A stretch of 64,000 nt of DNA from Tubulanus polymorphus. Taxonomy: Eukaryota; Animalia; Nemertea. The translations under genes were made by a program, and so were the position numbers. The stretch spans positions 1 through 64,000 of the forward strand of contig NW_027437436.1 of assembly GCF_964204645.1 (NCBI RefSeq), given 5' to 3'. Below the pieces are notes generated by a model. The model had not been told where the DNA came from and did no database searches. It saw only the letters and a program-made list of their open reading frames with translations. This document shows, piece by piece, positions 403 through 63,598 of this stretch; the stretch's first letter is position 1; each line of letters starts with the position of its first letter.

Positions 403-17783
<17,381 letters not shown>

Positions 17784-36720: not shown

Positions 36721-36792
36721 AGTAATTAGAAGATGGCGTTTTCATACCAGAGTACTAGAGTACTAGACACCACTCATCACCACAAGTAATTT
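36721..36792 (+). repeat. Left TIR of element 2
   Basis: Exact reverse complement of 53275-53346; extends imperfectly to 93 bp. Confidence 0.97.
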
Positions 36793-39700
36793 TTTTTCCT
36801 AATAAATGGGGGAGAATGAACACCAGCCAGAAAACAATAATGTTAATGAAAATCAATATCATTGTCCATATTGTAAAAAATACATTGATAAGTCTAATAA
36901 ATCTAAACATGAAAAATCTGCAAATCATATAAAAAATGTAATACATTTTGAAACCCCAGAAAATTCCAATGAAAGAAAGGAACGATTAGATGATATGAAT
37001 GTGGATGAAATAAAATGTGAAGTTTGTTATGAATTTATAGTAAAAAGGAATTATAAAAGACATATCAAATCACAAAAACACCATCAAAATTTGAGTAATG
37101 ATGTTTTAGGAAAAGATTATTTCGATGATAAACCTCAAAAAGTAAAAAAACCAACTTCAAAAACTAAATCCATTTCAAATAAACCTTACATGGAAAATGT
37201 TAGAAATTATATTGATTCACTAGAAATAAAAGATACAATTGAAATTTTAGAAACATTACATAGTAAAATTGGTTCTGCGGCTATTATATTTAGATTCTTT
37301 AAAGGAACAAGAATAGAAGATTATAGTAAATTTAATGAAATAATAGAAAAAATACTAGATTTGATAACAGATGTTGAATATCCAAAAATTAGTATCTCTG
37401 GGAAAGTAAGTTTTATAAAGTCAGAAGATAAAATGGATTATAATATTCAAACACTCTCTGAAGAAATAATTTCAAAAACGCAAATAAAAGAGAAGTTAGA
37501 AAAAATATTTAATGAATTTAAACGTCATATTGAAGAGAGATATTTTGAGGGTTCTGGTTTAACATTGAATGGAATTATATTTTTAGATTTAAATGTTTAT
37601 AATACTTAAAGGAATAAAACATCAAAAAGTAAAACAACGTTTAAAATGACTCAAACTTTACAACAGAAAAGGATATTAAAGCATCAAGTTATATTAAATT
37701 ACCATTTACAACAAAAGCAGTAATAAATGTTCAAAATGAATATAATAAATGTTTTCTATGGTCAATTATTAGTTGCTTACACCCAACAGAAGATATTACG
37801 CATAGTTTTAGAATAACAAATTACCGGAAATATGAAACATTATATAAAATTGATCAATATCCAGTAACTATAAAAATGATACCCAAAATAGAAAAATTAA
37901 TAAGTTAAAAATAAATGTATTCGAATTAATGCAATTACCAAACACAAAAGGTGAAAATATTAAAGATTATACATTGGAAGCTTTATATTTAACAGAATAT
38001 TATGATGATGAAAATGCTATAGATTTGTTATATTACAAAAAAGATGAAAATGAACATTATATGTGGTTAAAACAAATTGATTTATTCTTTAGAACAGAAA
38101 GTGATTTTAACAGTCATAAGATTTATCTATGTAGAAAATGTTTATCTAAATTTAGAACTGAGAATGCGTTACTAAAATATAAAGAATTATGTGATAATAA
38201 AGATTTTTGCAAATTAATAATGCCAACAGAAAAAGATTATAAATTGAAATTTACTAATCATAAATTTAAAAATATTGTTCCATTTGTAATTTATGGGGAT
38301 TTTGAATCGTTGAATAAAGAATTAACTGATCAAGATAGAAAAGAAATATATAACAAAAAGCAATTATTAAAATCAATGGATAAAGGAAATGAATTAAATG
38401 AAGACACAAGACCACCAATTATAAATACAATTAAAAAAGTTCATCAAAGAGCTGCTGCTTATGGAATTTATATAAAATCAAAGTATCCTGAATTATATGA
38501 AAGTCAATATATTTCTTTTAGAGGTGAAGATGTAGTTAATGATTTTTGTAACAAAATGATTGAATTAGAAAGTGATTTTGCAAAATTATTAAACAAAAAT
38601 AAAAGAATAGTTATGACAAAAGAAGATGAAATTGATTTTAATTATGCAACTCATTGTTGTTATTGTGAAAAACGTTTTTATTCATTTGATAAAAAAGTTA
38701 GAGATCATAATCATTAAATTCAAAATATCGTGGGGCTGCTCATGAAGATTGTAATTTACAAGCTAAAAAAGTAAATTTCGTTCCAATATTATTTCATAAT
38801 TTATCCGGCTATGATACCCATCTATTTATAAAACAATTATCAAGGAAATTGGGCGCAATTAATCAAGAAATAGAAGAATATAATGCTATGAATGGTGTAA
38901 ATGTAAGAACATATGATTTTAAACTATTAGCTAAAACATCTGAAAATTATATTTCATTTCAATTTGGTTGCATTAGATTTTTAGATTCTTATAGATTTCT
39001 AGCAAGTTCATTAGATAATTTATTAAAAAGTTTAGTTGATAATGATTTTGTTATAACTCGATATCATTATCCAAATGAACAAGATTCTAAATTATTGAGA
39101 TATAAAGGTGCAATTCCTTATTCATTTTATAAAACACACAATGATTTTAATGTAACAGAATTATTAAAAGATCAATTTTATGATCAATTAAAAGAGGAGT
39201 ATGTGAAAGATGAAGTGTTTAACAGAACATTAAATATTTGGAACCATTTTAAGATGAAAAATCATTGCGAATTAGTTGATTTATATTTATATTTATAAAA
39301 TCAGATGTTATGATATTGGCTGACATATTTGAAAAATTTAGAGAAGTTAATTTGAATCATTTTAATGTTGATCCTTGTTATTGCTACTCTAGTCCTGGTT
39401 TAACCTGGCAATGTGGTTTAAAATACACAAATGTAGAATTAGATTTATTAAAAGAACCAGTTATGGTTTTATTATTTTAAAAATCAATTAGAGGTGGAAT
39501 TAGTGGTGTTATGGGAGATATATATTTTAAAGCAAATGATGAATATAAATTATAATATATTGACGCCAATAATTTATATGGTTGGGCAATGATGCAACCT
39601 CAACCATATAAAAGTTTTATATTAACAGAAGTTGAAAATGATGATAAAACTGATTGGGAAAGCGCAATTGCGAGTTTAAAAGATGAAGCACCAATTGGTT

Positions 39701-39933
39701 ATTTCTTTGTAGTTGATTTAGAATATCCTGAAAATATAAAGTTTAAAACAAGAAACTTACCTTATTGCCCAGAACATTTAACCGTAGATGATAGTTATTC
39801 AAGTGAATACCAGAAGAAAATAAAACCGAAAGATCATGTTTTTACAGAAAAATTAATACTTACTCAAATTAATAAATACAATTATATTGTTCATTATAGA
39901 ATGTTAAAATTCTATCTAAAACAAGGAATGAAA

Positions 39934-40545: not shown

Positions 40546-40964
40546 AGAAAGTACATAGATATATTGAATTTAATCAATCGAAGTGGTTAGAAAAATATAT
40601 AGATTTCAATACTCAACAGAGAACCATATCAAAAACAGATTTTGAAAAAGATTTCTTCAAATTAATGAATAATAGTTTTTATGGTAAAACATGTGAAAAT
40701 ATTAGAAATAGAAATGATATTGAATTAGTAAATAATTCTGAAAGATTAAGACATTTACAATCAAGTCCTAGACATTTAGGAAATAAAAGATTTGAAGATT
40801 ATTTAACAGCAGTTAAATTAAAAAGAACGTCAATGAAATTTGATAAACCTATATTCATTGGTTCAACTGTTTTAGAAGTATCAAAATTATTAATGTATGA
40901 TTTTTATTATAATGTTTTACAACCTTTTTTTGGGGAAAAGCATATTGAAATATTATATTTTGAT

Positions 40965-42029
40965 TCTGTAACAGCTGACGCCCCAATATTATTAAAATGT
41001 AATAATAAAATATTGATAAGAAGAATTTCAGAAATAATTCCAAAACAAAATGAATGTTATATTTCATATGGTGAAAAAGAATTAATACAAATAAATGGAT
41101 TAATGGATGTTTGGACAAGAAATGGATGGAAAAAATTAAAGAATATTATTAGGCATAAAACAAATAAGAAAATCTATAGAGTTAGAACTAAATTAGGGTT
41201 TGTAGATGTTACAGAAGATCATAGTTTAATTAAACGAAATGGCGATGAAATAAAACCAACTGATATAAAAATTGGAGATGAATTATTACATAAAAGATTT
41301 TTCCAAAGAATGAATCATATGTCATTTGATGAAATTATTGATAATTTTTATAACATAGAACCCGAAACATTAGAAGAAAAAGAATATTTTTTTAAAGGAT
41401 TTTTCATGGGAGATGGTTCAGCAGGTGTGTATAATTATGTTAATCGCAATCAATATTGCTGGTATTTATGCAATCAAGATTTGAAATTATTAGCAAGAAT
41501 TAAGAAATTCTGTGAAGAAGTTTATTCACATAAAACATTTAGAATCGTGGATCATATGAAATCAACAGCAGTTTATAGAATACTTGTAAATAACCATAAA
41601 GATTTTGCTACAAAATATAATGACGAATTCTATATCCATACAATAGTTAAAAGTAATACTTCAACTAAAGAAAAGATAGTTCCAGATTATGTATTAAATG
41701 CAAAATATAAATTAAGAAAATGGCTCTTCATTGGATTCTATGCTGCAGATGGTTCAAAAAAATATACGAGATCTCCAGTAATAACATTTGCGCAAAAAGG
41801 AAAAGTTGCTATATCAGGATTGAATATATTATGCAGTTCATTAGGATTTAATATGAATATAGAATTAATTAAATCTAAACCAAATTGTTTTAATTTAAGG
41901 CATACAGAAAAAGATTTAACTGAAGAAGTTATAGATTTATTTGAAATATATAACCCATCAGATTATGTTTATGATTTATCAACTGAAGATGGCACATTCA
42001 ACTGTGGATTTCCATTAATAGCCAAAAAT
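40965..42029 (+). mobile_element. Intein with LAGLIDADG homing endonuclease (355 aa) in pPolB motif C
   Basis: N-extein ..LYFD; block A SVTADAPILL; block B VDVTEDHSL; LAGLIDADG helices FFKGFFMGDGS and LFIGFYAADGS; block F YVYDLSTEDGTF; C-terminus IAKN; +1 Thr (TDA). Confidence 0.95.
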
Positions 42030-42481
42030 ACGGACGCCTACATACTAAAAATCAAGACAAATGATATAACAAAAGACTTAAAAACATTAAAACATCATTT
42101 TGATTTTAGCAATTATCCCAAAGATCATGAACTATTTAGCAATGATAATAAAAAGATTCCTAGTAAGTTTAAAGATGAATTAGAGGGTGATGAAATGATT
42201 GAATTTGTTGGGATAAGAAGTAAAATGTATAGTTACAGAACAAAAGATCATGAAGCTAAAAAGTTAAAAGGAATAACAAAACATGTGGTTGATAAACATA
42301 TAGAATTTCAAGATTATATAAAGTGTTTATATAACTCAATTGTAATGAAACATAAAATGAATTGTTTAAGATCAGAAGATCACGAGATGTACATTAATGA
42401 AGTTGAAAAAACTAGTTTGAATCCATTTGATGATAAAAGGCATATTTTAGATGATGGTATAAAAACATTACCTTATGGCCA

Positions 42482-43810
42482 TTAAAACATAAAATCAATA
42501 TCATCATACTCGAAATCACTATTGGCTTCTTCATTTTCATTTAATTGTTCTTGTATAATTTGTTTCGGTTCTTCCATTTCATTTTTCTCATTTAAATATA
42601 GTTCTATCTTGCGCCACATTTCATCTCGCTCTCTTTGTTTCTTTTTGTTTGTTAATTCATCAAATGGAATTATAATATCTATGTTTAAATTATTTACAAT
42701 CTTATTTAAAAAGAATTCATAATTTATTGAATCTGTTATTCTATTTTCCAAATGATACATTAATATTTGTTTAAATATTTTTTTTTTATTTTCCATATCT
42801 TCTTCTGTTAATTTAGGTTTTTCATAATAATCGTTAAATAATGAATATAAATACATTTTCTTTTGTTTTGTGTTAAATGTTGACGGAATAATTGTTTTTA
42901 TAATATCTTTTTTAGTTATTTCACCATTTTTATTTTCTATTATTTTCATTTTTTCAAGCCATTGCATATATTCTGGTGTATGATCTTCTATAGAAAATAT
43001 TTTAAAAATTTCATCTAGATAATTTAATTTTGGCTCTATGAGAAAATTTCTAGTTTTTTCTTCACCCCATAAATTCTTTTGCCATCCACAATCAACACAA
43101 AATAACACAGTACCTTCTTGTCTTAAGGTCGCATAACTACATTGTGGACATTTTCGTTTATAATTTATTGGTAGTAGATCTTCATTAAGCTCTTGGTATT
43201 TTCTTACGTTTTCTTTATGTTTTATTGTTCTATTATGTAGATTTGAATTACTTGTTGTAATAATCAATTTACAATATTTACAATAATATGTTTTTCTTGT
43301 TAATTCATTATATTGTTTTTCTAACTTTTCAACTGTTTCTTTATTATCTGGTAACGTTTTCTCATATTTTATTTTTTCTAATAAATTATTTTTTCTTTCA
43401 TTGAATTCAGTTTCAAATTTATTAGAAATTTTATCTATATGTACTTTACGAAATTGATGATTCTCCCAATCTTCTATATTTTCAGGGCTATATTTTATTC
43501 GACAAGGCTCGCAGAAATGATCTTTCATATTATCCTTATCATAGAATAAGAAAGGTCTTTTCCAAATAATTTCAGGTTCAACTTCAACAGAATTACTATT
43601 ACTTTCATTACTATCAACATTAGCCGTTGCGCCATTAATTTTACACTTCTCTGAATGTTTTTTAACATAATTTCTTGAGAATAATTTATTACATTTTGGG
43701 CAGTTTAGTTTAGGGGGTTTATAATTTTCTTCATGTTTTTTCATATGTCGAGCCATATTACTTTTTCTTAGAAGTTCACCACAAATTTCGCATGGTATCT
43801 TCTCATCCAT
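42482..43810 (-). CDS. Multi-zinc-finger protein (element 2)
   Basis: CEIC..HMKKH, CPKC..HSEKC, CEPC..HQFRKVH, CKYC..HNRTIKH, plus a CPQC..CVDC ribbon; intact 442 aa. Confidence 0.8.
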   Translation of the reverse strand: MDEKIPCEICGELLRKSNMARHMKKHEENYKPPKLNCPKCNKLFSRNYVKKHSEKCKINGATANVDSNESNSNSVEVEPEIIWKRPFLFYDKDNMKDHFCEPCRIKYSPENIEDWENHQFRKVHIDKISNKFETEFNERKNNLLEKIKYEKTLPDNKETVEKLEKQYNELTRKTYYCKYCKLIITTSNSNLHNRTIKHKENVRKYQELNEDLLPINYKRKCPQCSYATLRQEGTVLFCVDCGWQKNLWGEEKTRNFLIEPKLNYLDEIFKIFSIEDHTPEYMQWLEKMKIIENKNGEITKKDIIKTIIPSTFNTKQKKMYLYSLFNDYYEKPKLTEEDMENKKKIFKQILMYHLENRITDSINYEFFLNKIVNNLNIDIIIPFDELTNKKKQRERDEMWRKIELYLNEKNEMEEPKQIIQEQLNENEEANSDFEYDDIDFMF

Positions 43811-43878
43811 TTATTAAGGAAAAATTTTATTAAAATTAATTTTTAGTGATGAGCGGTAATTTTTTTATGTTATAAATA

Positions 43879-44632
43879 ATGGTAGAATTAAAAGAATACA
43901 GAATATTTGTTGATTCTAGAAAACTTACAAATTATAAATCACATAATTTAATAGTTCAATTAGATAGAGAATTTAAGAATTGTGTTGATTTAAAATTAGT
44001 AAATATAAGTTTATGTAACTCATTTTACAATATATCGGAAAAAAGTCTAGAACATTTAATTTTTTCAATCTTTTACAAAAAAAAGGAATAAATGGTTTTT
44101 TATATATTTAAAACCAGGATTATATAATTTAGATACATTAGCACAAGAAATTAATAGAAAAGCTCGAGCTAAATTAGGAAGTGATTCCGGATTTAGTATT
44201 AGAATTTTAAAAAGTGATAGTTCTAATAAAATAAAGATTAGGTTAGCTAATGACGAACAATTTAAATTTACAGTAAGAAAACCTTTAGGTAAACTGTTAG
44301 GAATTAACCCAGGTATTGTTACAGCATACGCAGAAGGTAAATCAAACTTAATACCTTTTACACATTTTTATATTTATTGCAATTTAATTGACCCAACAAA
44401 AACATTTGAAGCAACTAAAGATACAATTTGTAATTCTGGTTTATTAAATATTTTACCATTAAAAAATGTCAAACAATTTGGAACTCAAATAAATTATAAT
44501 TTAACTGAATGTGATTTCAAACCTTGTATTCCACATTTTAATAATTTTAGATTAGAAATAAGAAATCATAATGGTTATTTAATTGATTTGAATAACTTTC
44601 CTGTGATATATGAATTAGTTATAAGATGTTAA
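43879..44632 (+). pseudogene. Minor capsid protein (penton), frameshifted
   Basis: IFVDSR..NSFYNI at the N-terminus; after a frameshift near 44090, FYIYCNLI..LLNILP..RLEIRNHNGYLIDLNNFPVIYELVIR, a pattern typical of Polinton single jelly-roll pentons. Confidence 0.75.
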
Positions 44633-44654
44633 GAGTAATTTTTTCACTATATAA

Positions 44655-45014
44655 ATGAATATAACTGTTGGACCGAGTATATGTTTTGGATTTGATTTTA
44701 AACGTGAGAAAGAAATGAAATTTAACATTAATGATGTAATTACACATATCAAAAATATAGCATTTTCTAATGAAACAACATTTGAGTATGAAACAACAAT
44801 AGATAAAGAAACTTTAAATGTAGAAAAGATTACTAATTTAATTAGAGAATCTTTAAGATTTTATGAATTAGATGAAGATTTTATCATAGATGATATTAAA
44901 AACATATCAACCAAAATATATGATAATCATAAAAGTAGTAATGAAATAAATGTTGAATTAATCATCACTAAGATAACTAAATATTTTGAAGAAAGTAATT
45001 TTTTTGATAAATAA
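44655..45014 (+). CDS. Hypothetical protein (element 2)
   Basis: 119-aa ORF with a TAAATG start. Confidence 0.65.
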   Translation: MNITVGPSICFGFDFKREKEMKFNINDVITHIKNIAFSNETTFEYETTIDKETLNVEKITNLIRESLRFYELDEDFIIDDIKNISTKIYDNHKSSNEINVELIITKITKYFEESNFFDK

Positions 45015-45239
45015 ATGAGTGATAATAAGTGGATAATAACTGGATTATATAATGGAGCATTACTATCAGTTGGAACTGTTGGTTATTCAATGGTATTAAA
45101 AAAAGTATTCAAAATGGGAAGTGTTAATCTTGATAGATTTGATATAAATGATATTTTAAAATTAACATTAGCAGTTACTTTATCTAATTTAACTATTGAT
45201 TATTTAGAAAAAACAAAAATATATATTCCTCCCACATAA
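45015..45239 (+). CDS. Small hydrophobic protein (element 2)
   Basis: 74 aa, two hydrophobic segments, TAAATG start. Confidence 0.65.
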   Translation: MSDNKWIITGLYNGALLSVGTVGYSMVLKKVFKMGSVNLDRFDINDILKLTLAVTLSNLTIDYLEKTKIYIPPT

Positions 45240-45263
45240 ATGCATAATTTTTTTGCTAAATAA

Positions 45264-45686
45264 ATGGCTTCTGCAATTATAACTATTATAGGATCGGCAA
45301 TTGTTAACGCTTTAGCATTTACTGGTGGTGGTTATTTATTTAAGCATATTGATAAAAATAGTTCATTAGGAGAACAAAGAAGACATAACTTAGCATTAGA
45401 GAAATACAATAAAGCAGCAGAAGAATACAGAGAAAAACGACAAAACTATATGGATTATATTAACAAGGAATTATATGATCAGAAGATTTCACATAGAGAT
45501 TTTCAATCAGTTGATGATGCTATGAGTTTATATAACGCAGTAACCAATAAAGAAAAATTACATCTATACAAACCTAAATTATCAGATTATTATACCCCAA
45601 GTAAAGAACAACAGAAATATGAAATAATATGGATTTTAGGTGGAACTGTTATTGTTATATTTGTAGCATATAAATTTACTAATTAG
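45264..45686 (+). CDS. Small protein with hydrophobic termini and a central coiled coil (element 2)
   Basis: 140 aa; MASAIITIIGSAIVNALAFTGGG..HNLALEKY..C-terminal TM segment. Confidence 0.7.
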   Translation: MASAIITIIGSAIVNALAFTGGGYLFKHIDKNSSLGEQRRHNLALEKYNKAAEEYREKRQNYMDYINKELYDQKISHRDFQSVDDAMSLYNAVTNKEKLHLYKPKLSDYYTPSKEQQKYEIIWILGGTVIVIFVAYKFTN

Positions 45687-45706
45687 TAATTTTTTTTTCT
45701 AAATAA

Positions 45707-46126
45707 ATGGAAGATAAAGTTGATAGTATTGATATTATTCCTCATGATATAAATAAAACTAAATTGAAAATATATTTAGAAAAACAAATATTAGAATTTG
45801 AAAGTGACTTAAAGATAAAAAAGAAAAAATATTTAAAAAGTAAAATTATATATTATCTTATTATTAGTGGTTCGGTTACAATTAGTTCTGTAATAACATT
45901 TCTAGCAATATTCAGTCCATTAACACCTTTAGCTATATCAATTGGTGTATTAGGATTAAGTTCAAGTGTTTTAACTGGTATAAGTTCAAAATTAAATATA
46001 AAAAGTAATAAAGAAAAAATTAAAACTAATATAAAAGAAATTAATAAATTAAAGAATACACTAGATTATATAATAAGTTTAAATGGTCATATAACAGTTG
46101 AAGAACAAGATTTAGAAAAGAATTAA
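45707..46126 (+). CDS. Coiled-coil protein with two TM segments (element 2)
   Basis: 139 aa; hydrophobic hairpin flanked by Lys-rich helices. Confidence 0.65.
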   Translation: MEDKVDSIDIIPHDINKTKLKIYLEKQILEFESDLKIKKKKYLKSKIIYYLIISGSVTISSVITFLAIFSPLTPLAISIGVLGLSSSVLTGISSKLNIKSNKEKIKTNIKEINKLKNTLDYIISLNGHITVEEQDLEKN

Positions 46127-46153
46127 TAAATTATTAATTTTTTAATTATGTAA

Positions 46154-47557
46154 ATGGTAGATAGTTTTCCAAAAGCTTTCCAATATGATAAATCAATTAA
46201 ATATAATATTCCAGCAATAGATTTTAATAAAGATATTACATATAGAAATGAAGTTTTAGATTCATTAACTAATTTAGAAATTTATGTTACTGAAACTAAT
46301 AATTTTAATGCAAAGATGGAAAATATATTTCATGTATATTTAATTAATTTTAAAAAATTGAAAGATGAAAAACAATGGTTATTAAAATCTAATATGAAGT
46401 ATTGGCAGAACCAATTAAATTTTGCTGTTTATTGTGCAACAACAGGATGTGGAATTAGTTGGAATGATCATTTGAATAATTCTAAATATAAATTAATTCA
46501 AAGTTTATTTAGATTTCATACATACTTTCAAATCAGAATAATATTAAATGAATTAGAGTGCGCTTTACCAGGATCTAGGTATTTTAAAGAATTAGATAAT
46601 AATATTAATTTATCAAAGTTTAATACAATTTGTAATGAATTTAATATAGATATAAATAATTCTGATTTTAGAACAAAAATTGGAACAATAAGATCACGTC
46701 CTTGCCCTAAAAAGATTGCAGAATATTGTGCACTTCCCATACCATCTAATAGTTTGTATAATATCTATAGTAATAAATTAGGTTATGGTAAAATAGAAAC
46801 TAAGGATTTAGAAACATTAAATTTCAATAAATTACCGACATTTTATGATAATTTAAAACAAGAAAACAATAATGGTTGGGTTTATTTCATTTTAGAAAAT
46901 AATGAAGGTTTTACAAAATCAGGTATACAAAGAATAAATCAATCTATTAGAACTTATTTGATATGTATTTTAGGTGCGCAAGTTGAAACAAGATCCCCAA
47001 TAATTGGAAATTTAAATACATCATTTGATACACAGAAACAATTCAAAGTATTATTTGAAGATTCTATTCATAATGATAAAAATAGATCGATTCCAGAAAA
47101 CATTGTAAGATATCAAAATTATTTAGATAAATCTCATGTAAGACTAAATTATTGTATAGGCCCTAATCTATTAATTATTTCTAATGATTTAGTACTAAAG
47201 ATGGGAAACATAATTGGTTACAATAATCTAATTAAAACTGCAACAATAAATAATTCATTTGGATTAAATGATATAAATAAAAAGATTATTACCGCTCCAA
47301 AATTAATGGAAGGTGAAAAAAATAAAAAACACATTCAATCTACAGAAACTAAAACTAAAAATATTAAATTGCATAATGATTCTAAAATAAAAGATTACAA
47401 TACATCAGAAAATATAAAAACTGATAATATTCAACATGATATAATTAAAACTGATAATGATAATAAATTCCATGAAAATACTAAATTAGCTTTAACTTGT
47501 ACAGGAATTGTTATAGGAGGAATATTATATTTTAAATTTTATTTTTTTATTATATAA
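46154..47557 (+). CDS. Hypothetical protein with a C-terminal TM anchor (element 2)
   Basis: Intact 467 aa; WQNQLNFAVYCATTGCGIS..FRFHTYFQ..ILGAQ motifs. Confidence 0.75.
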   Translation: MVDSFPKAFQYDKSIKYNIPAIDFNKDITYRNEVLDSLTNLEIYVTETNNFNAKMENIFHVYLINFKKLKDEKQWLLKSNMKYWQNQLNFAVYCATTGCGISWNDHLNNSKYKLIQSLFRFHTYFQIRIILNELECALPGSRYFKELDNNINLSKFNTICNEFNIDINNSDFRTKIGTIRSRPCPKKIAEYCALPIPSNSLYNIYSNKLGYGKIETKDLETLNFNKLPTFYDNLKQENNNGWVYFILENNEGFTKSGIQRINQSIRTYLICILGAQVETRSPIIGNLNTSFDTQKQFKVLFEDSIHNDKNRSIPENIVRYQNYLDKSHVRLNYCIGPNLLIISNDLVLKMGNIIGYNNLIKTATINNSFGLNDINKKIITAPKLMEGEKNKKHIQSTETKTKNIKLHNDSKIKDYNTSENIKTDNIQHDIIKTDNDNKFHENTKLALTCTGIVIGGILYFKFYFFII

Positions 47558-48993
47558 ATGGATGTAGAAGGTGGAGAAGATATTGGAATGGATCCTTTAG
47601 ATGAACCTGGTATAACTGATGAACAACAACCTGATTTTAGTGAAACAAGTTTTAATGACGGTAATGCGTCAGGATATAATAATAATTTAAATATGCCTGA
47701 TTATATTAGAAATGCAATTAGAATCACAATTAAATCCTGAAAATTTAGACCCAGATTTAGTAAATCAAGATTTAGATAATTTAAACAAAATACCTAAATT
47801 AGAAGATTTAATTGAAAAATCTAAACTTAACATAAATGATGAAGACGTTGGACTTTTAGCAGATCAATTAAAATTTTTAGATAATGGTAAATGTTACTAT
47901 CGTTTGAAAGGTGATTATTATATTGATATCACTTATAAAAATAATAAAAATAAAATATGATCAGAATCAACTTTAGAAAAATTAAAACCAGATAGAATTA
48001 AAAGAATAAGTAATAGTAATGAAATAACTGATGTTACACAAAAAGAAAGAGATGATAATATAGACGTATTTAAACAAAAAATTAATGAATTATTTGAAAT
48101 AATCAAAAAGAAATCAGAAACAGAAACAACTTCTGAACAGAATATAACTTCCAAAACTAGTAAACTTAAATCAAATAAAGTTTCAATTGAAAAACTTTTA
48201 CCGAATGGATTAATTGATGCAACAGATCAAGAATTAGAAGATTTAGATATATTTTCTGATAAAGCAATTAGAGAGATTATTAGTATAAGAAATGAAGCTG
48301 ATAAAATTGCGCATGATAAAAGTATAAGAGATTTAAAAATTAGAACTTTAGAAAAAGAATTAACTGATAAAAATATAGAAATAGAACAATTAAAATTAGA
48401 TAGAGATAATAAAGTTATTGAAGAAATTGAATTTAAAAAAAAGAAATGCATATTTAGAAAAAGAAATTGATGATTTAGAATATAACATAGAATTACAAAA
48501 AGAAGAAATAAAATTATTATTAAAATCATATGATTATAATATTAATAGATTAAAAGTTATTTTCAAAGATTTATTGATAAAACCAAATTCTGAAATATCA
48601 TTGAAAGATAGAATAAAGTTATTATTTAAATTAGAAGGAATAACAATTCTTTCAATTATAACAGCTGTAACTATGTTATTTACAACAATAGGTTTAGCAA
48701 TATCAAATGCTTTAAAATCTACTCCTACTCCCAATAAACCGGATAAACCCCCGAATGATAATTCTATACAAGATAAAGTTAAAGATGGTTTAAAGAAATT
48801 AGCAAAATATTTATGGGAACTATCTAAAAAATCTGCTGCAGCTTTACCAGGAATTATTGCATCAATTGTTGGTTTTATATTGAAATCTGCTGGGAACATT
48901 CTTAACTTTGCTGCTGAATATATTATTTTATTTTTAATTACGGTTGTAAGTGCTATTATTTTTGGGTTAGTGAATATGATTAAAAATAAATAA
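47558..48993 (+). pseudogene. Long coiled-coil protein with C-terminal hydrophobic/amphipathic helices, fragmented
   Basis: ORF pieces 47558-47740, 47712-47960 and 48418-48993 share one TAAATG start. Confidence 0.6.
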
Positions 48994-49013
48994 TTAATTT
49001 TTTTGTTAAATAA

Positions 49014-50261
49014 ATGAGTGGGAGTTATATAAGTCCTTCTAAGATTTCTAGAATATCTAATGCTATTAAAGCAGAAAGATCACATCATATAATTACTCAT
49101 AATCCTTCAAATATTAATCCCGATGAAACTTTATATGTTAGAATTCCTCGATTAACACAAAATACTTTTTATGTTCCAAATAGTATTTATCTATCAGCTG
49201 ATATAAAAGTAACTGGTCATGATAATAATTATGTTGTTGATAATGTTGGGAGATATTTGATTAAAAAATTAACTATAAAGATTGGTCCAGAAACAGTTTT
49301 CTCATTAGATGATTATAATTTATTTATGCATTATGAAGATTTATAGTTAACTAAAGAAAATAGAAATAATATGATATTTCAGGGTATTCAATCGGAAAAC
49401 CATAATAAATTAAGATCAGGAGCTAATGACGCAATAGTAACTCGTGCCACAGATAATATGATTAAAAAGATTTATGGAAGCAAATATGAAATTCCATTAG
49501 ACTTTGAATTGATAAATAATAATGCACCTTTATATAAATATTTAATTCAAGAAGATATTATATTTGAGATAACATTTGCTCCTGTAAATGAAATTGTATT
49601 ATCTAGCTTTGTTAAAGATATGGGTTATAAATTATCAAATATATGTTTAGAATATGACACAGTTACTAATGAAAATATTGCTAGCACAATTCAAACTCAA
49701 TACAATCAAGGATTTTCATTATTATATGATTATATTGATAAATTAAAAACTGTAACTATTAATGCAAATGATGAAATAATTAATGAGAATATTAACTTCC
49801 CAAGAAGATCTATTAAAGGTATATTAATATTTTTTACCATTGCAACATATTCTAATGGCGCAATAAAGGTAGATAATTATTATAATCCTGAAATAACAAA
49901 AGTAGAAATAACTATCGAAGGAATAGCATATAAAATATTTTGTCAAGGAATGAGAATGATAGATCAATGGCCAGAAATTAGAAAACATTTTATGAATGAA
50001 AAAGTAAAATCATTTGAAAATTGTAACATTAATCAAATTGATTATTATACCGGCAATAAATATGCATTATGGTTAGATTTAAGAACAACAGAGGATAATT
50101 CATTACATGGTTCTGGGAAAAAACTACAGAACACTAAAGATGGAATACAATTATTCATGGCGAAGAAAACAGGAGACAAAAATTTCAAAATGCAGATTTA
50201 TATTATATCTGACGCACAATTAAATATTGTAAATTCACAATTAGATAGTATTCAATATTAG
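49014..50261 (+). pseudogene. Major capsid protein (double jelly-roll), one in-frame stop
   Basis: About 415 codons in one frame with TAG at 49344-49346; beta-rich (NPSNINPDETLYVRIP, IIFEITFA, PRRSIKGIL, WLDLR..LHGSG); lies next to INT and ATPase. Confidence 0.75.
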
Positions 50262-50291
50262 AAATATAAAGTTAAAATTAAGGATATATAA

Positions 50292-51419
50292 ATGGGTGGT
50301 AAAAAAACTCCTAATACTATAAAACAATATTTAAGAAATTTATATTACAACCCCGAGAGTTCGGTTGCTTATTCTTCTACCAAAAATATATGGCGTCAAG
50401 TAAAACAAGATAAATTAGATAAGACAATCCCACAAAATTTAGTTAAATATAAAGATATAAATGAATTTATGTTAGAACAACCAGCATACACAACACATAA
50501 AAAAATTGTTAGAAAATATAAAACTCGTTAAACTATGGTAAGTTATGTAGATCAACAGTGGCAAGGAGATTTAATTGATATGAAAAATGTTAAGAAAGAT
50601 AATGATGATTATTGGTGGTTATTGAATATAATTGATATTTTTAGTCGTTATGTATGGAGTTTCCCACTTTATAGAAAAGATGCTGTACAAACATCAAATG
50701 TTTTAAGAAAATTTCTTTCGGATGATAAACTAAAACCAGAAAAAATACAATTTGATGATGGAAAAGAGTTTGATAATTCACTTGTTCATGAACTCTTAGA
50801 TAATCATAATATTAAATATTTTTCAACAAAATCGGATAAAAAAGCAGCAGTTGTTGAACGATTTAATAGAACATTAAGAACAAGAATGTGGAAATATTTT
50901 ACAGCAAATAATACTTTTAAATGGATTGATGTTTTACCAAAATTGATAGAAGGATATAATAATTCCTATCATTCTTCTATTGGAATGAAACCTATTGATG
51001 CTAAAAAACCTGAAAATGCTGAAATTGTTTGGAATAATTTATATGGAGCATTTCTTGTAGATGATTTTGGTGAACCTAAATTTAAAGTTGGTCAAAATGT
51101 TAGAATTTCTAAGTATAAAAAGATATTTGACAAAGGATACGATCGAAATTTTACTAGGGAAATATATAAAATAAAAAAGGTAATAACAACAAAACCACAT
51201 GTCTATAAATTAGAAGATTTAGATGGTGAAGAAGTTGATGGCTACTTTTACGAAGAAGAATTAAGTTTAACTACTGAAAATCTACAACAAGAATATAAAA
51301 TTGAAAAAGTATTAAAAACAAAAACTATTAAAAGAAAAAAATATTCTTTAGTAAAATGGGTTGGATGGCCAGATAAATTCAATGAATGGATATTATCAAG
51401 TAAAATTAAAAATATATAA
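50292..51419 (+). pseudogene. Retroviral-like (rve) integrase with C-terminal chromodomain, one in-frame stop
   Basis: WQGDLID, IDIFSRY, QFDDGKEF, VVERFNRTL (DDE triad); IEKVL..LVKWVGW..EW chromodomain; TAA at 50529-50531. Confidence 0.93.
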
Positions 51420-52028
51420 ATGAATAAGGAATTATTTATATTTGAGCCTCATAATATGTTAATTTCTGGTGTAACAAATTGTGGAAAAACTTATTTTATA
51501 TTAAATTTATTAGGAACTGTTTATAAAAACTATTTTGATAATATAGTATTATTTTGTCCAACATATGAATTTAATCAAACTTATGATAGTAATATTACTA
51601 GAAATAATAAATTTATTATATTAGATCCTAAAACAGTAAAAGAAAATTTAGATAATTGTATTAAAATAGCAATAGATATTTATAAAGGATCAAATACATT
51701 ATTCATTATAGATGATTGTGCAAATTTACATGATTCAAAAATTAGAGAAAGTGAGTTATGTTATTTAGCTTTTTCTGGTAGACATTTTGGGATAACAACA
51801 TGGGTTTTAAATCAAAAATATAATTCAATTGTTAAAGACTTTAGAGAAAACATTAGATTTCTAGTTTTATTCTACAATAAAGATAGAAAATCGATGAAAA
51901 ATGCACTTGAGGAAAATGATATTATTCCACATGATTTACATAATGAATATATGGATAAGTTGAAAAATATTAAAAGATCAAAATTACTATTTAGATTACA
52001 ACACCCATTTAAATATGAATTTATTTAA
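51420..52028 (+). CDS. A32/FtsK-like genome-packaging ATPase
   Basis: Walker A GVTNCGKT, Walker B FIIDD, GRHFGIT..NQ, REN. Confidence 0.92.
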   Translation: MNKELFIFEPHNMLISGVTNCGKTYFILNLLGTVYKNYFDNIVLFCPTYEFNQTYDSNITRNNKFIILDPKTVKENLDNCIKIAIDIYKGSNTLFIIDDCANLHDSKIRESELCYLAFSGRHFGITTWVLNQKYNSIVKDFRENIRFLVLFYNKDRKSMKNALEENDIIPHDLHNEYMDKLKNIKRSKLLFRLQHPFKYEFI

Positions 52029-52029
52029 A

Positions 52030-52205
52030 TTCAACTAGCTTGTTAATCTAGTTTAATTCTAGTTACATTCTAGTTGAATTCTAGTTGTTAGTAGTTGGAA
52101 CAAAAATCAACTAGATTTAACAAGAAATAAACAAAAACAACAATATTTCAACTAGCTTGTTAATCTAGTTGAATTCTAGTTACATTCTAGTTGAATTCTA
52201 GTTGC
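52030..52205. repeat. CTAGTT-rich internal repeat block of element 2
   Basis: Two copies of about 57 bp of TTCAACTAGCTTGTTAATCTAGTT..TTCTAGTTG. Confidence 0.8.
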
Positions 52206-52235
52206 AACATCACAACTAATTTTTTTGTTATATAA

Positions 52236-52773
52236 ATGGGAGGTGAAAAGAAAATAAAATCTAAAAATGGTGATGTTCCAATTGAAAAAACTTTAGATGA
52301 TTTAGGAATAACAGAAAACAACTAATTCCAGATGATGGTGCTTTAAATAATGTTACAACAAATGATAATTATGAATATTATCTTTATTCTAAACATCAAT
52401 TAGAAATATTAATAGCATCTGGAAAATGTAAAAATTTTGTCGGTAAAAATTTAACTTATAATGAATTAGATACAATGAAATCAGATGAAATTATTAGATT
52501 ATTTAAGATTTATGAAACCGCGAGAACAGCTAGAATTAATGACGCGATATCAGAAAATGTAGTAAAAGGTTATAGTAAATTATGTAATTATATACTACCA
52601 ATTGAAGATGAAAATAGATTATATTCCGATTTAAAAAATGACTATTTAGTTATGACTGAATTAAATAAATGGATTGGATATTTATCATTTCAATGAGGTG
52701 GATTTATGACATTATTATCAACTGGGGTTATAACATTTTCAAATATTGAAAGTAAAAATATTTCTTTGGATTA
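52236..52773 (+). pseudogene. Homologue of ORF 60945-61547, disrupted
   Basis: IEKTLDDLGI..YEYYLYSKHQLE..ARINDAISE..LKNDYLVMTEL; frameshift or stop near 52324 and TGA at 52694. Confidence 0.8.
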
Positions 52774-52934
52774 ATATTTTAGAAAAAAAGCAAAAAAATA
52801 ATTTTTTTAATTAATTGAATATTAATTGAATATCTCACTACTTTTGTCTATCTATGCGGAGCAATTAAATTGTCCAGATAAGTCATTTCGGATTCTAGAT
52901 ATTCATTATTTTTATTAATTTATCTTTTTTAAAT

Positions 52935-53261
52935 TTAATCAACAATTTCTAAATCATGATGGCCATCTTCATTTTTTCCATGATAGATTATTTTAAATCC
53001 TTCTAAATCTTTTAATTCCTCTGTACTCAATGAAAACCATTTATCAGGTAAAAATACTTTAAATTCTCGTGATGTACTAACATTACAGTAGCTTAAATTA
53101 GCTGATACTTTCTCTCCATATTTAGTTTTTATCTTTTCTAATTTCAATATTTTATGTTCAATTTCTTTTGTAACATCAATTAACTTTTTTATTTCAAATT
53201 GTTTTTTTGCTGGTTTTATTCTGTTATTTATTGTTGCTAAGAATGCTTTTCTATCTCCCAT
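52935..53261 (-). CDS. Small terminal protein (108 aa) whose start lies in the extended right TIR
   Basis: Intact ORF; homologous to 5656-5990. Confidence 0.75.
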   Translation of the reverse strand: MGDRKAFLATINNRIKPAKKQFEIKKLIDVTKEIEHKILKLEKIKTKYGEKVSANLSYCNVSTSREFKVFLPDKWFSLSTEELKDLEGFKIIYHGKNEDGHHDLEIVD

Positions 53262-53274
53262 TTATAAGGAAAAC

Positions 53275-53346
53275 AAATTACTTGTGGTGATGAGTGGTGT
53301 CTAGTACTCTAGTACTCTGGTATGAAAACGCCATCTTCTAATTACT
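53275..53346 (-). repeat. Right TIR of element 2
   Basis: Exact reverse complement of 36721-36792, followed by the TSD CAGTTC. Confidence 0.97.
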
Positions 53347-55551: not shown

Positions 55552-55595
55552 GGAACCATGGACTCTAAAACGATTTCGTCTTAGAGTCCATGGTT
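55552..55595. repeat. Short palindrome / micro-MITE
   Basis: ACCATGGACTCTAA..TTAGAGTCCATGGT. Confidence 0.65.
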
Positions 55596-57629
55596 AAATT
55601 ATAGGTTATTGCACGGTTGAATTCGAAGCGCGTTAACGCCGAGATTTCCACCGTGCAATAACATACTTAATACGTGGCTCTGAACCAAAACAGATGCTTC
55701 TAACAATCTGATGATATGATCATGAAATGGTATCAAATAAATCAGCTGCAAGCACAAAGATTGTTCACACTTACTTTTATCCCGTTCTGTAGAATGTTTG
55801 TTCCCGATTAATTTCTTCGAACTTGACTCCGATAAAACCGATTCTACAATTATATGAGTGAAATAACACAGAAGCCCGATGGTACTAAGTCCCAAGTGGG
55901 CTCAATGGGTCCAGGGACACCACGCCAACTTAGGAAGTGGCATGGAATGCACAACAATCATAAAATCCTAACATTCAATGCCGTTGGTGATCGTATAAAG
56001 AAGTGAATGACCTAGAAACTCACCACACTGTCTCAAAATTGTGTTATGAGCTACAATCCTGCAATTGACTGGTATAAGTTGAGGTCGTACAGTTGTATGA
56101 ATCATGATCTAGATGTAGACGACCTTGAATGACCTTGAAACTCGATCAGGACGATCGGGGAAAATGTAAAGTTGCCTATATCGGATGGCTCAGGATCACC
56201 TTTACAATTCTCATTTCGGATATATCAGTTCTCAATTCATATTGAACCGCCGTTCCAGCATCAACATCGGCGGTCGATTCAACCGATTCCAGCAATCCGA
56301 TGAGGGCCGTTGAGGGTCCCCAGCGTGTTTTGGCATGGGCTTGTCGGGTTTGGGGAAGTGTCAAATTTTAAACAATCTGGTAATATACCGCATAAAAACA
56401 ATAACTCATATCTATCTGCTAGCAAATGCTATCATCCACAACACTCACACGTCATTATGTATGTGCTACTGCAGTATGTTTTTTTTTTCTCATTGGTTTT
56501 TAATAGCAGGTGTGTTTCTGTTTTTGACAACAATTAATGTTTTAACTAAACATCTTTCCTTTCCCGTACGATTGCCAATATGTTTGTAAATCATTCCCAG
56601 TTTTGATGGGACAAGAAAACAAGGTGTCAATGGGCACTGTTAGATTCAGCGCAGAAGTTATTGAATTGAAGGAGCTAATCATATCCATCCACCATACTAG
56701 ACCATACATTGGTTTAGTAAGGTACTCTATCAGCATATACTTGACATAAAAGGAAGTGCATGTTATAAAAGTATAAGGTAATTAGATTTTAAATAACAAA
56801 CAGTTGTTTATACAAGGAAGAGAAGGTAAAAGCATAACGCATTTTAAGTAGGCCTAATAGATTTTGAAATTAAAAACATGTAATTATCATAAATCATAAG
56901 CCTCCTAATAAGATAATAAGGTTTCGTTAAATCAAAAGCATCTCAGATGTCATATTTAAATTTTTGTTGTTGAAGCTGAAATCAAATCTAGCTGTATCAG
57001 GAAATGAGAAAGTATCCTAAGTTCCATACAAACTCTGCTACCCTGCTACGTAACCGTCTCATCATACATCTTAGCGTCAAGCAGTAGCGCGAAAGAGACG
57101 CAGAAGTCACCAAGACGAATCCACGCAATGACAGGATCGTAGCAGTAAGCCATTATGCGTTCGATTTCAAGTATATACTACACAATATTGGTCGACTTGT
57201 ATGGTGTTTTTAATGCGAATTTAAGTGTTTAAAATTCATCTGCATATCGATACAAACGTTTGTTTCGTTAAGATAACCCAAAATATTTCCAAACAAATCT
57301 TTTTCTATTAAGAGAATATCCTTTATCTAAAGATAAACGGCTCCGCTGATTTTGGTGAGCTTCACTTGTAACTAAAACGAGGGCTCTATCATCACAGCTG
57401 CACAGTAAATACTGCAAACTACGCCGCGCATCGACATGAAATTTTCAGCACAGCACATGAAAAATCCTCGTCAATTTTATTTCTTCTTTTGTAGTTTTCT
57501 TATTGAAGAATTTGATATAATGTATCAGTATATAAAAAGCCTGCTTGTAAATTCGACAGCAAATGTTGTACAATGCCGCTCATATTGATTGTGTCTACTT
57601 TATAGATCAAGATGACGTCACACTACATC

Positions 57630-58035
57630 AGTAATAGGGGTAATAGGCTTTCATACCAAAGGTCGAACGGTCGAGCCCATTAAAAAACAAAATATTAAAA
57701 GTAATTAAAAAACTATAATATATTTTCATAACCGCGTGCATTTTATATCAAAACTAAATATTTATTATAAGATATCAATAATATAAAAAGCATATTGTAT
57801 TAAATCAATTGGTCGCTCCACTTCGCTACCGCTCCGCTCCGCGACCAATTGATTTAATTACAATACACAAATTCAAATAATCAAATATATTCAAATGATA
57901 ATAATTATTCTATTATTCAACTGAAATGCACGCGGTTATGAAAATATATTATAGTTTTTTAATTACTTTTAATATATGTTATTAATGAACTCGATCATTA
58001 AACCTTTGATATGAAAGCCTATTACCCCTATTACT
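57630..58035. repeat. 406-bp terminal imperfect palindrome of element 3
   Basis: Outer arms about 57630-57742 / 57924-58035; inner 18-bp stem 57799-57816 / 57841-57858. Confidence 0.92.
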
Positions 58036-58117
58036 CTTAAAATATTCATATATATATGAATAACATTTAAATCATTGAACTTCTAAAATCAATTTTAATA
58101 AAAAATATAGCATTAAA

Positions 58118-58354
58118 ATGGAAGCAAATAAGTACTACTGCCCAACATGTAATATCGATATAGATAAATCTCAAAAAGCAAGACACAATAAAACTATAAC
58201 ACATTTAGAGAATAAATTGAAACTAGAATATTTACAGTTATATTCAGAACAGTTAACAAAGGGAAAGAAATTCATAGAATTATGGAATAATGATCCAAAT
58301 AATAAACAATATGTTGAGGATACGATGTTTATACTAGAACATGATTCTATTTGA
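58118..58354 (+). pseudogene. Chimeric ORF: pPolB-type first zinc finger fused to an HNH-gene tail
   Basis: The N-terminal half matches 6039 onward (MEANK.YYCPT..SQKARHNKT); the C-terminal half LQLYSEQL..KKFIELWN matches the end of 60457-60720. Confidence 0.7.
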
Positions 58355-58885
58355 GCCTATATACATTCAATGTATAGAGCTATAGAATAAATCTATAAAT
58401 TCACAGCTGTTACAGTTGTTACTATAACGACGAGACATTATGACTCATAATATTACAAACTGTGCTGGAACTCTGAATAGAGATGACACATCATAATCAG
58501 AAACGTGTAGAATATTCTAGAAAGGCGCGCCGGAACTAGATGATGTGGTATAATCAACGACGTGTCATTCTAGAAATCGCCCCGGAAATGGACATACGCT
58601 GTAATATTGTGCTCAGGATATTCTATCTTTCGAAACGAAATTAGGAGTTTATAGTTTACAATTATAAATCTAAATGTAAGTACTGTTTGTTGTAGTTATT
58701 AAGGCTATTAAATATGAAACCTTTAAGTGCTTTTGACAACTACAACTTTATACAGTTAATTCTATTTTACGTTAGATAGATAATAACTTGAACTATAATA
58801 AGTTATAATAATTAGAAACGATAGACTTGAAAATATTTATATCATTTAATATCGCGGTTCCTGTTCTACCGCTGATATCTTTTAG

Positions 58886-59945: not shown

Positions 59946-60720
59946 ATGGAGGAACAATCACAAGCTATAAATATAAACAATGATGGTGTAATAAATATAT
60001 GCTATAAGAAATGTAATAAGTGTGAATTGAATAAATCATTAACAGAATTTCATAATCATAAAAAAACTAAAGATGGTAAAAGTTGTTATTGCAAAACTTG
60101 TTATAAACTATATAATAAACAATATCAAGCAAATAATCCAAATTATTCAACACAATATTATATGGATAATATTGAAAAATTCAAAGTTAGAAATAAACAA
60201 TGGAGAGAAAATCACTCAGATTATATAACAGAATATATGAGAGAATGGAGGGATAATAATAGAGAATATTATAAAGCGTATCAAAATAATTATCAAAATG
60301 AAAAATATCAAACAGATTTTAATTACAAATTGAAAAAATGTTTAAGATCTAAAGTATCAAAATTATTCAGTAAAGAAAACCACTCAGTTACACTAACACA
60401 TTTATTGGATTGTTCAGATAAATTTTTTAAATCATGATATAGAATATAATGATAAAATGAATATAAATAATTATGGCAATTATTTTCAAAAAGACCATGT
60501 TTTACCAGTTTCAAAATTTAACATGAATGATGAATACAATAAAAAGTTAATTTGGAATTGGAAGAATTTAAGACCTCTTGAAAAGAAGGAAAATATGATT
60601 AAACATGACAAACTAGATTTACAGTTATATTTAGAACAGTTAATAAAAGTAAAGAAATTTATTGAATTATGGAATTCAACACATAATGAACAATACGTTG
60701 AGTCTTTAATGAGTGGTTAA
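59946..60720 (+). pseudogene. HNH-type endonuclease with N-terminal zinc finger, one in-frame stop
   Basis: CNKC..EF..KDG..YCKTC, a Tyr-rich helix, DHVLPVSKF..WKNLRPL..EN; TGA at 60435-60437 in frame. Confidence 0.8.
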
Positions 60721-61902: not shown

Positions 61903-62991
61903 ATGATGAAAAAAGAACAATATTTAAGAGAGTTATATTATAACCCAGAAAGTGAAGTATCATATTCAAGTGTTTCGGAATTATGGGATAAAATTAAATC
62001 TGATAAAGAAAAAATAAAATATAGTGAATTAAAATCATGGTTACAAAATCAACCAACATATCAAATTCATAAAAAGATGGATAAAAAATATTTAACAAGA
62101 AAAGTAATGGTTTCATATATTGACCAACAATGGCAAGCAGATTTAATTGACATGAAAAACTTAGAAGAATATAACAAAGGATATTTCTGGATACTGAATG
62201 TTATAGATATATTCAGTAGATACGCATGGAGTATCCCGATTAAAAATAAAACTGGTATAGAAGTAACAAATGCTTTTAAATCTATATTTAAAGAAGCTAT
62301 CCCAGATAAGATACAATTTGATGAAGGTAAAGAATTTTATAACAAACATTTTAAAAAACTATTAACTGATAACGATGTAGAATATTTTTCAACACATTCA
62401 GATAAAAAAGCATCTGTTATAGAAAGATTTAATAAAACATTGAAAACTAGAATGTGGAAATATTTCACCGCTAATGAAACATATAAATATATCGATGTGT
62501 TAGATGATTTAGTTAAAGGTTATAATAATTCTAAACATAGTTCTATAAATATGAAACCTATACAAGTTAGAAAAGAAGAAAATTCAGAAATAGTTTGGAA
62601 TAATTTATATGGAGCATTTGTTACACACGATTTTGGAGAACCTAAATTTAAAATAGGACAACATGTTAGAATTTCTAAATATCGAAAAACATTTTATAAA
62701 GGTTATACCCCTAATTTTACAGAAGAAATATTTAAAATTAAAAAGATAATATTAACTAAACCATTTGTTTATAAATTGTTTGATTTAAAAGATGAAGAAA
62801 TATTAGGTTATTTTTATGAACAAGAATTATCATTAGTACCAAATCCAGATGAAATAGAATACAAAATAGAAAAGGTATTGAAAACAAAAACTCTTAAAGG
62901 AAAAAAGTATTCTTTGGTCAAATATAAAGGATATGATGATAAATTTAATGAATGGATTTTATCTAGTAAAATTAAAAGAATAAATGAATAA
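61903..62991 (+). CDS. rve integrase with chromodomain, intact
   Basis: WQADLID, IDIFSRY, QFDEGKEF, IERFNKTLK; C-terminal chromodomain. Confidence 0.95.
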   Translation: MMKKEQYLRELYYNPESEVSYSSVSELWDKIKSDKEKIKYSELKSWLQNQPTYQIHKKMDKKYLTRKVMVSYIDQQWQADLIDMKNLEEYNKGYFWILNVIDIFSRYAWSIPIKNKTGIEVTNAFKSIFKEAIPDKIQFDEGKEFYNKHFKKLLTDNDVEYFSTHSDKKASVIERFNKTLKTRMWKYFTANETYKYIDVLDDLVKGYNNSKHSSINMKPIQVRKEENSEIVWNNLYGAFVTHDFGEPKFKIGQHVRISKYRKTFYKGYTPNFTEEIFKIKKIILTKPFVYKLFDLKDEEILGYFYEQELSLVPNPDEIEYKIEKVLKTKTLKGKKYSLVKYKGYDDKFNEWILSSKIKRINE

Positions 62992-63598
62992 AGATTTATT
63001 TATATTTGAACCACATAATATGTTAATAACTGGAGTTACAAACTGCGGTAAAACACACTTCATATTAGACTTGTTAGAAACTATTTATAAAAATCATTTT
63101 GATAATATAATATTATTCTGTCCTACTTATGAAATGAATGAAACGTATAATAGAGATATAGTTTTTAAAGATAAAAAGTTTATTATATTAAATTCTAAAA
63201 CAGTAAAAGAAAATTTAGATAATTGTATAAAAATTGCATTAGATATTTATAAAGGATCTAATACATTATTTATTATTGATGATTGCGCAAATTTACATGA
63301 TTCTAAAATTAGAGAAAGTGAGTTATGTTATTTAGCTTTCTCTGGTAGACATTTTGGGATAACAACTTGGGTTTTAAATCAGAAATATAATTCAATTGTG
63401 AAAGATTTTAGAGAGAATATAAGATTTCTAGTTTTATTCTACAACAAAGATAGAAAATCTATGCAACAATCATTGGAAGAAAATCAAATTATACCTACTG
63501 AATTACATGATGAATATATGAATAAATTAAAAAATAATAAAGGTTCAAAATTACTTATGAGATTACAATTTCCATATGAATATAAATTTATAAAATAA
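62984..63598 (+). CDS. A32/FtsK-like packaging ATPase, intact
   Basis: GVTNCGKT, FIIDD, GRH motifs. Confidence 0.93.
   Translation: MNKDLFIFEPHNMLITGVTNCGKTHFILDLLETIYKNHFDNIILFCPTYEMNETYNRDIVFKDKKFIILNSKTVKENLDNCIKIALDIYKGSNTLFIIDDCANLHDSKIRESELCYLAFSGRHFGITTWVLNQKYNSIVKDFRENIRFLVLFYNKDRKSMQQSLEENQIIPTELHDEYMNKLKNNKGSKLLMRLQFPYEYKFIK

Follow-up and report, generated by a model that had tools for sequence, protein, structure and literature searches.

Palindromic fold-back termini of a multi-copy Polinton family in the nemertean Tubulanus polymorphus

Results

Three Polinton-type elements lie in one stretch of the genome

The stretch of Tubulanus polymorphus DNA analysed here, 64,000 nt in length and referred to as the window, contains three AT-rich elements of the Polinton/Maverick type (Table 1). 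Among the genes by which such elements are recognized, element 3 carries an rve integrase and a packaging ATPase; a capsid gene is not present in its visible part, and the profile scan returned no match for a protease. Element 2 encodes a broken polymerase with an intein, an integrase, an ATPase and a protein with a weak capsid match (Capsid_N, E 0.005). It has terminal inverted repeats with AG...CT ends and is bordered on either side by the 6-bp target-site duplication CAGTTC. Two metagenome contigs, L001 and L002, with integrases 83-84% identical, carry a homologue of the Capsid_N-matching gene of element 2 downstream. Together with a third contig, L003, they hold close relatives of elements 2 and 3 in two differing gene orders. 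In all three left flanks (5499-5504, 36715-36720 and 57624-57629) the AGT of the element is preceded by TC, which possibly reflects a target preference.

Table 1 Positions of the elements, their termini and the genes discussed in the text.
Feature	Position	Strand	Remarks
Element 1	start 5505	+	Decayed; only left end visible, right end apparently broken
Terminal palindrome, element 1	5505..5591	+	87 bp, 24-bp perfect arms
Inner junction, element 1	5592..5618	+	18-bp palindrome 5599-5616
Broken polymerase 5' part, element 1	6054..6823	+	Zinc fingers and predicted terminal-protein domain
Inverted remnant of 6806-6907 and 5865-5949, element 1	11128..11305	-	
Element 2	36721-53346		Both ends present; plain 93-bp terminal inverted repeats
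Left terminal repeat, element 2	36721..36813	+	93 bp, no palindrome, TSD CAGTTC; control
Right terminal repeat, element 2	53254..53346	-	CAGTTC directly after; control
Host hexamer TACATC	57624..57629		Precedes element 3; presumed target-site duplication whose second copy would lie beyond the window
Element 3	start 57630	+	Extends past the window end; only left end visible
Imperfect terminal palindrome, element 3	57630..58035	+	406 bp, AGT...ACT
Outer tip, element 3	57630..57655	+	26/26 complementary to 58010-58035; resembles element 2 terminal repeat
Middle block	57691..57742	+	Pairs 51/52 with 57925-57976; reads show a one-base gap mirrored in the other arm
Loop	57817..57840	+	24 nt, strand-asymmetric, GCTCC repeats, closed by 18-bp stem
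Inner junction, element 3	58036..58065	+	Constant, common to element 1; 20-bp perfect palindrome 58043-58062
Polymerase gene start, element 3	58118..58231	+	Covers about 33 initial codons; probable inner boundary of a putative terminal repeat of about 600 bp
Broken HNH/endonuclease-VII-like ORF, element 3	59946..60437	+	phrog_1035, E 3.5e-09
rve integrase with chromodomain, element 3	61903..62991	+	PF00665, E 2.3e-09
A32-type packaging ATPase, element 3	62984..63598	+	PF04665, E 8.2e-13

Several further features of the window are recorded here. A gene-start motif in element 2 (AGTAAT, a T run and TAAATG; 36785, 44634, 44994 and 45685) begins like the element tip. Element 1 contains a 701-bp tandem duplication (6896-8300, 97%), each unit of which includes a palindrome of about 96 bp (6942-7037 and 7644-7739). 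Its ORFs at 8902-10188 (428 aa) and 10607-11092 (161 aa) could not be assigned to a family; the former had no match in Pfam, PHROG or the Atlas. Region 10333-10879 is covered by a 548-nt X1 contig with a depth of 946 compared with about 40 for low-copy sequence, and by X5 reads with a depth of 25-45 compared with 5-10; one of the samples may contain it in many near-identical copies. A 12-bp direct repeat (5432 and 11116) flanks element 1. Host sequence includes a NACHT-domain gene (27774-30323) of a species-specific expanded family (13 close matches) amid long tandem arrays and two copies of a short repeat (11636-11729 and 12934-13024). The NACHT protein matches an NCBI protein of Tubulanus polymorphus with 100% identity along its full length, and the window is accordingly animal DNA. 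A 42-bp palindrome lies at 55554-55595.

Elements 1 and 3 open with hairpins and element 2 does not

An earlier, sequence-only reading of the window held that element 3 opens with a 406-bp imperfect hairpin with a GCTCC-repeat loop and element 1 with an 87-bp hairpin, that the same sequence follows both, and that element 2 has no such structure. All four statements were borne out. As DNA, 57630-58035 folds into a single hairpin of -116 kcal/mol (z -20.7), a value matched by none of 100 shuffled sequences, and 5505-5591 folds with -22.9 kcal/mol (z -10.9; none of 200 shuffles as good). Along the outer arm of the 406-bp hairpin, pairing in successive segments amounts to 26/26, 24/33, 51/52, 37/55 and 16/16, i.e., three separate blocks stay perfect or near-perfect while the others drift. 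The motif CGCTCC occurs at 57814, 57830 and 57835. Both hairpins lead into the same junction, in which the AT run of element 3 is longer by two letters that are absent from 809 of 2122 reads. The tip, AGTAAT, recurs in inverted orientation 87-406 bp inside; with this second copy the whole element end forms a palindrome, just as had been proposed. The palindromes are flush with the element end and the 3' base is paired, which is the geometry of a parvovirus-type terminus. In element 2, no inverted copy of its 12-nt tip was found within 1 kb of either end (the best candidates have 3-4 mismatches), and the ends do not fold back. The arm tips of the hairpins nevertheless resemble the element 2 terminal repeat, with 11 of 41 columns invariant over six tips, and the hairpin arm is thus Polinton end sequence. 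An Rfam search of the sequence yielded no match. The score in a bacterial promoter scan, which has no bearing here, did not exceed that of shuffled sequences.

The palindrome is part of the element end

Raw Illumina reads from a second study (set X5, 150 nt, unphased) were mapped on positions 57030-58830. No bin among the 30 is left uncovered, and in 1897 reads the outer tip continues into diverse flanks, so that the hairpin is not an assembly artefact. The reads that leave the outer tip at 57630 enter flanks unlike each other (agreement 0.34). Across the inner tip, read depth holds, with 1974 reads over 58006-58066, 2122 at 58048 and 1711 over 58067-58127, and a loose end at 58035 is not among the six best-listed X5 rows (the lowest with 434 reads; best 24 of 752 overall). 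Neither hairpin has a 6-bp duplication of its own, the hexamers on its two sides being TACATC and CTTAAA in element 3 and CATGTC and CTTATA in element 1. The sequence-only reading had named in advance what would speak against an integral terminus, namely that the palindromes are independent MITEs with their own target-site duplications. For such insertions diverse flanks are expected on both sides; the flanks are diverse at 57630 and continuous at 58035. Diverse outer flanks, a continuous inner tip and the lack of a separate duplication identify the palindromes as element ends and not as stray MITEs. It is no separate insertion that is seen here but a Polinton family, present in many copies, whose ends have the palindrome as their extreme tip.

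With a low-copy depth of 5-21, the number of inner junctions is estimated at about 100-400, and the long hairpin is present at 65-270 of these; contig depths of X1-X3 were excluded from these estimates. Under eight read-clipping assumptions, the ratio of outer ends to inner junctions ranges from 1.07 to 1.65. All these figures are rough, because arm reads may map to the opposite arm and hairpins are possibly under-sequenced. Even if the whole excess of outer ends consisted of solo hairpins, these would make up about 4-25% of all hairpins at most. While stray MITEs are excluded, a minority of solo hairpins of up to about 25% is compatible with the reads.

The two arms change in step

When elements 1 and 3 are compared, nine of the first 24 tip columns differ, and each inner arm bears all nine differences, even though the junction that follows is shared. 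Related observations were made in the X5 reads, where mirrored changes represent population shares only, as the reads are unphased. Of the reads, 61% have a one-base gap at 57707/57708 and 51% have one at 57955, its mirror position; at 57995, 78% carry a letter that pairs with its partner at 57670. Three of the four gap rows listed were used here; a 6-base insertion at 57783 was left out. In addition, short hairpins with other centres exist. Their joints connect 57665, 57674 and 57676 to 57996/58001 via 14-37 other letters (5-12 reads each), and two of these centres are self-complementary by eye. Loose read ends at 57686 (657) and 58001 (573) belong to the same picture. Among the best 40 of 558 substitution rows, nine fall inside the hairpin: two pair with the window partner, five break the window pair and two are partnerless. 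Of the five pair-breaking changes, that at 57960 is probably mirrored by a gap shift at 57707, and for the other four (57735, 57767, 57876 and 57903) the partner row is absent among the best 40 of 558. A mirrored change means either that one arm was copied from the other or that whole hairpins were swapped. Taken together, the nine mirrored tip differences and the shorter variants with other centres indicate that the arms have likely been copied from each other.

The start of a polymerase gene follows the hairpin

The gene after the hairpin encodes the N-terminus of a polymerase, and only its 5' part follows the hairpins in elements 1 and 3; the polymerase of element 3 proper would be situated past the window end. 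For ORF 36806 of element 2, a word-index search recovered no longer relative; a HMMER search found P0031, an intact protein of 1319 aa that aligns along the whole polymerase region of element 2. Its residues 3-251 align to 6054-6823 of element 1 and residues 2-33 to 58127-58222 of element 3. Relatives of the element 2 polymerase match PF03175 and have an endonuclease VII match below the Pfam cut-off; P0031 itself has no PF03175 match and shows weak endonuclease and zinc-finger matches alone. The intein in the broken polymerase of element 2 (40536-42485) contains a LAGLIDADG domain, and this stretch is absent from P0031.

A model of modest quality for the N-terminal ORF (seven sequences, mean pLDDT 63) predicts two zinc fingers followed by five strands and two helices in the order beta0-beta1-alpha1-beta2-beta3-alpha2-loop-beta4; the loop that precedes beta4 contains Ser250, flanked by glycines. 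This fold agrees with the written description of the terminal-protein domain in the available part of PMC11161782, a comparison made without superposition. Element 1 keeps the same loop-serine motif. With a predicted terminal-protein domain after the hairpin and the loop serine kept in element 1, hairpin and protein priming appear to occur side by side. A hairpin is not required, since element 2 lacks one and yet has a polymerase of the same kind.

A terminal repeat may open both ends

At 58231, 731 reads exit into a polymerase continuation that by eye resembles element 1 from about 6157, while a depth of about 580 stays on the interior of element 3 past this point; a further 523 reads exit at 58072 into another interior. 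Reads leaving at 58231 while interior depth is maintained are expected if one terminal repeat opens both ends. The simplest reading would be a repeat of about 600 bp, made up of the hairpin and the polymerase gene start; at one end the polymerase would begin in it, and at the integrase end it would appear as a stub. In element 2, likewise, both terminal genes have their start codons within the repeat. An outer-to-inner ratio of 2 is expected for one hairpin end and one plain end, and the lower values obtained fit hairpins at both ends. In element 3, the polymerase stub has been joined to a duplicate of the HNH-like gene's 3' part (58220-58318 and 60610-60702).

For element 1, the order of the inverted remnant at 11128-11305 would fit a broken right terminal repeat. 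Delimitation of this element as 5505-11089, with unlike ends and the target-site duplication CATGTC, was considered and rejected. The sequence TATTACT followed by CATGTC is indeed found at 11083-11095, and ATTACT plus CATGTC occurred in none of 3000 shuffles (ACT plus CATGTC in 36 of 3000). However, sister-copy reads and contigs run through the site: depth is 60, 55 and 48 over 11079-11201, two X1 contigs bridge the candidate end, and a loose end at this place is not among the best 12 of 124 rows. The reads that run through 11083-11095 could come from larger duplications. The candidate hexamer near 11090 contains the start codon of the 161-aa ORF.

Discussion

We lean, with a little more than even confidence, towards fold-back self-templating of a single-stranded end, operating beside protein priming, as the process that would keep the arms alike. 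The hairpin would be present at both ends as the tip of the terminal repeat. Strand displacement from protein-primed ends would free a single strand, whose 3' tip could snap back on the inner arm, and the polymerase would then repair or extend the tip from this arm. A nuclease of the element, either the integrase or the endonuclease-VII-like domain, may trim or resolve the folded end, and the integrase would act chiefly on the AGT tip at the outside. Protein priming itself would, as predicted, persist. The hairpin-based replication intermediate already proposed in the sequence-only reading is the best inference at present.

This process would amount to a local version of the panhandle proposed for adenovirus and PRD1, where the displaced strand pairs with itself, which is proposed to restart replication and to restore terminal homology (PMC11886824, in the part available). 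The panhandle pairs both genome ends, whereas the nemertean hairpin pairs one end with itself, and the same source states that direct evidence for panhandles is still lacking. In the Polinton cycle as relayed in the accessible text of 10.64898/2026.07.28.741278, the end is proposed to become single-stranded at excision and during strand displacement.

The end could alternatively replicate as in parvoviruses: the folded 3' tip would be the main primer, a nick at the inner AGT/ACT boundary would resolve the closed end and the palindrome would be inverted (flip/flop). The geometry suits such rolling-hairpin replication, since a tip whose last base is paired to the inner arm has interior template immediately in front of it, and the weak endonuclease-VII-like match of the polymerase family, below the Pfam cut-off, could provide a means to resolve junctions. 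AAV, as far as described in the portion of PMC11575299 at hand, likewise ends in a palindrome, from the 3' base of which synthesis on the interior could be primed. It is, however, a single-stranded DNA virus with a T-shaped palindrome of 125 nt, nicked by Rep and occurring as flip and flop. No Rep/HUH nickase was detected among the 26 ORFs scanned, elements 1 and 3 being incomplete, and the predicted terminal-protein domain and its loop serine are kept. A weak further point against it is that no strand-change joint was among the best 15 of 70, as flipped copies would mostly be mapped as mismatches. We consider rolling-hairpin replication, although the strongest rival, unlikely as the main mode.

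The same model has been proposed, as a hypothesis, for elements of the protist Halocafeteria seosinensis. According to the available part of 10.64898/2026.07.28.741278, virophage subtypes 1, 2, 5 and 6 and PLV subtype 4 carry terminal palindromes that lie within the terminal inverted repeats beside the target-site duplication and mostly accompany non-pPolB replication genes. The nemertean ends share with them a palindrome in a terminal repeat, here putative, that adjoins the expected target-site duplication of an element with an rve integrase. They differ in belonging to an animal Polinton, in their size (87-406 bp and length-polymorphic, compared with 52 nt in the subtype figured there), in the mirrored change between the arms and in being followed by a pPolB-type gene for which a terminal-protein domain is predicted. 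A figure legend in the accessible part of 10.64898/2026.10.13.758929 also marks a palindromic repeat in a related genome. A hybrid route is conceivable in some animal Polintons, in which protein priming would be combined with rolling-hairpin self-priming, folded ends would be resolved by the element's own integrase or endonuclease-VII-like domain, flip/flop ends would arise and the hairpin might occasionally be released as a mini-element; we regard this, too, as rather doubtful.

The sequence-only reading had also offered a self-contained mobile mini-element, i.e., a captured derivative of the structure tip-spacer-tip that the integrase can mobilize alone and that acts as an interchangeable terminus. 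In its favour, the AGT...ACT ends are perfect at both tips, hairpins of several lengths share one junction, there are 7-65% more outer ends than inner junctions, and in one X2 contig 57686 is connected to 58037, so that the inner arm is apparently missing. Against this, neither hairpin is flanked by a target-site duplication, the X5 rows listed include no loose end at 58035, and the swap of whole hairpins at a fixed junction requires an extra mechanism. The excess of outer ends, which plain or diverged ends can also yield, caps solo copies at about one quarter. This part of the earlier proposal has become the weaker one, and we judge it improbable.

It is similarly improbable, in our view, that the hairpin is a neutral by-product of an ancient copying slip whose arms are kept similar by host cruciform repair or gene conversion. 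Element 2 manages without a hairpin, and palindromes are prone to central deletions, a well-known behaviour of such sequences. However, the window copy seems to have decayed from pairing at 57995, which suggests that symmetry is not repaired in the chromosome, and three separate blocks have stayed perfect or nearly so while others drifted. That independent MITEs landed beside the elements is, despite their MITE-like size and inverted ends, very hard to reconcile with the same inner junction in both elements and in the estimated 100-400 ends, with the missing duplications and with flanks that are diverse at the outer tip only.

With Polintons/Mavericks, as characterized in the available parts of PMC8097293, PMC10748475 and PMC11161782, the elements of the window have in common the rve integrase, the A32 ATPase, a probable pPolB-type polymerase, AGT...ACT ends, an AT-rich body and a 6-bp target-site duplication, the last seen for element 2. 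For vertebrate and nematode Polintons, the accessible sections of PMC8097293 and PMC10748475 describe simple end motifs such as (AGT)2//(ACT)2 together with terminal inverted repeats, and no terminal fold-back; the nemertean tip, in contrast, is AGTAAT and has an inverted repeat of itself 87-406 bp inside. A literature search, with limited coverage of subscription journals and repeat-database entries, revealed no terminal fold-backs in animal Polintons; the hairpins treated in bioRxiv 10.1101/2022.05.25.493380 are beta-hairpins of proteins alone. In viral contigs and metagenomes, junction and hairpin patterns gave 0 matches, and no viral contig proved related when integrase and capsid sequences served as queries. 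The 67 metagenome loci showed neither DNA similarity to either hairpin nor a terminal AGT...ACT fold-back, the closest loci stopping before their ends.

We thus describe a Polinton end in an animal that is integral to the element and self-symmetric, for which protist virophages and PLVs provide the precedent. To our knowledge, the exit of a Polinton from the chromosome and its copying have never been shown, and the racket (panhandle) model is an inference. The nemertean family offers a way in: hundreds of ends with a strand-asymmetric loop make the replication mode testable from sequence alone, rolling-hairpin replication and fold-back repair can be told apart by the orientation of the loop in the different copies, and a sister family lacking the hairpin, represented by element 2, is available as a control in the same window. 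In protist elements, terminal palindromes have been suggested to go together with the loss of a protein-primed polymerase, a link that does not appear to hold for the nemertean hairpin.
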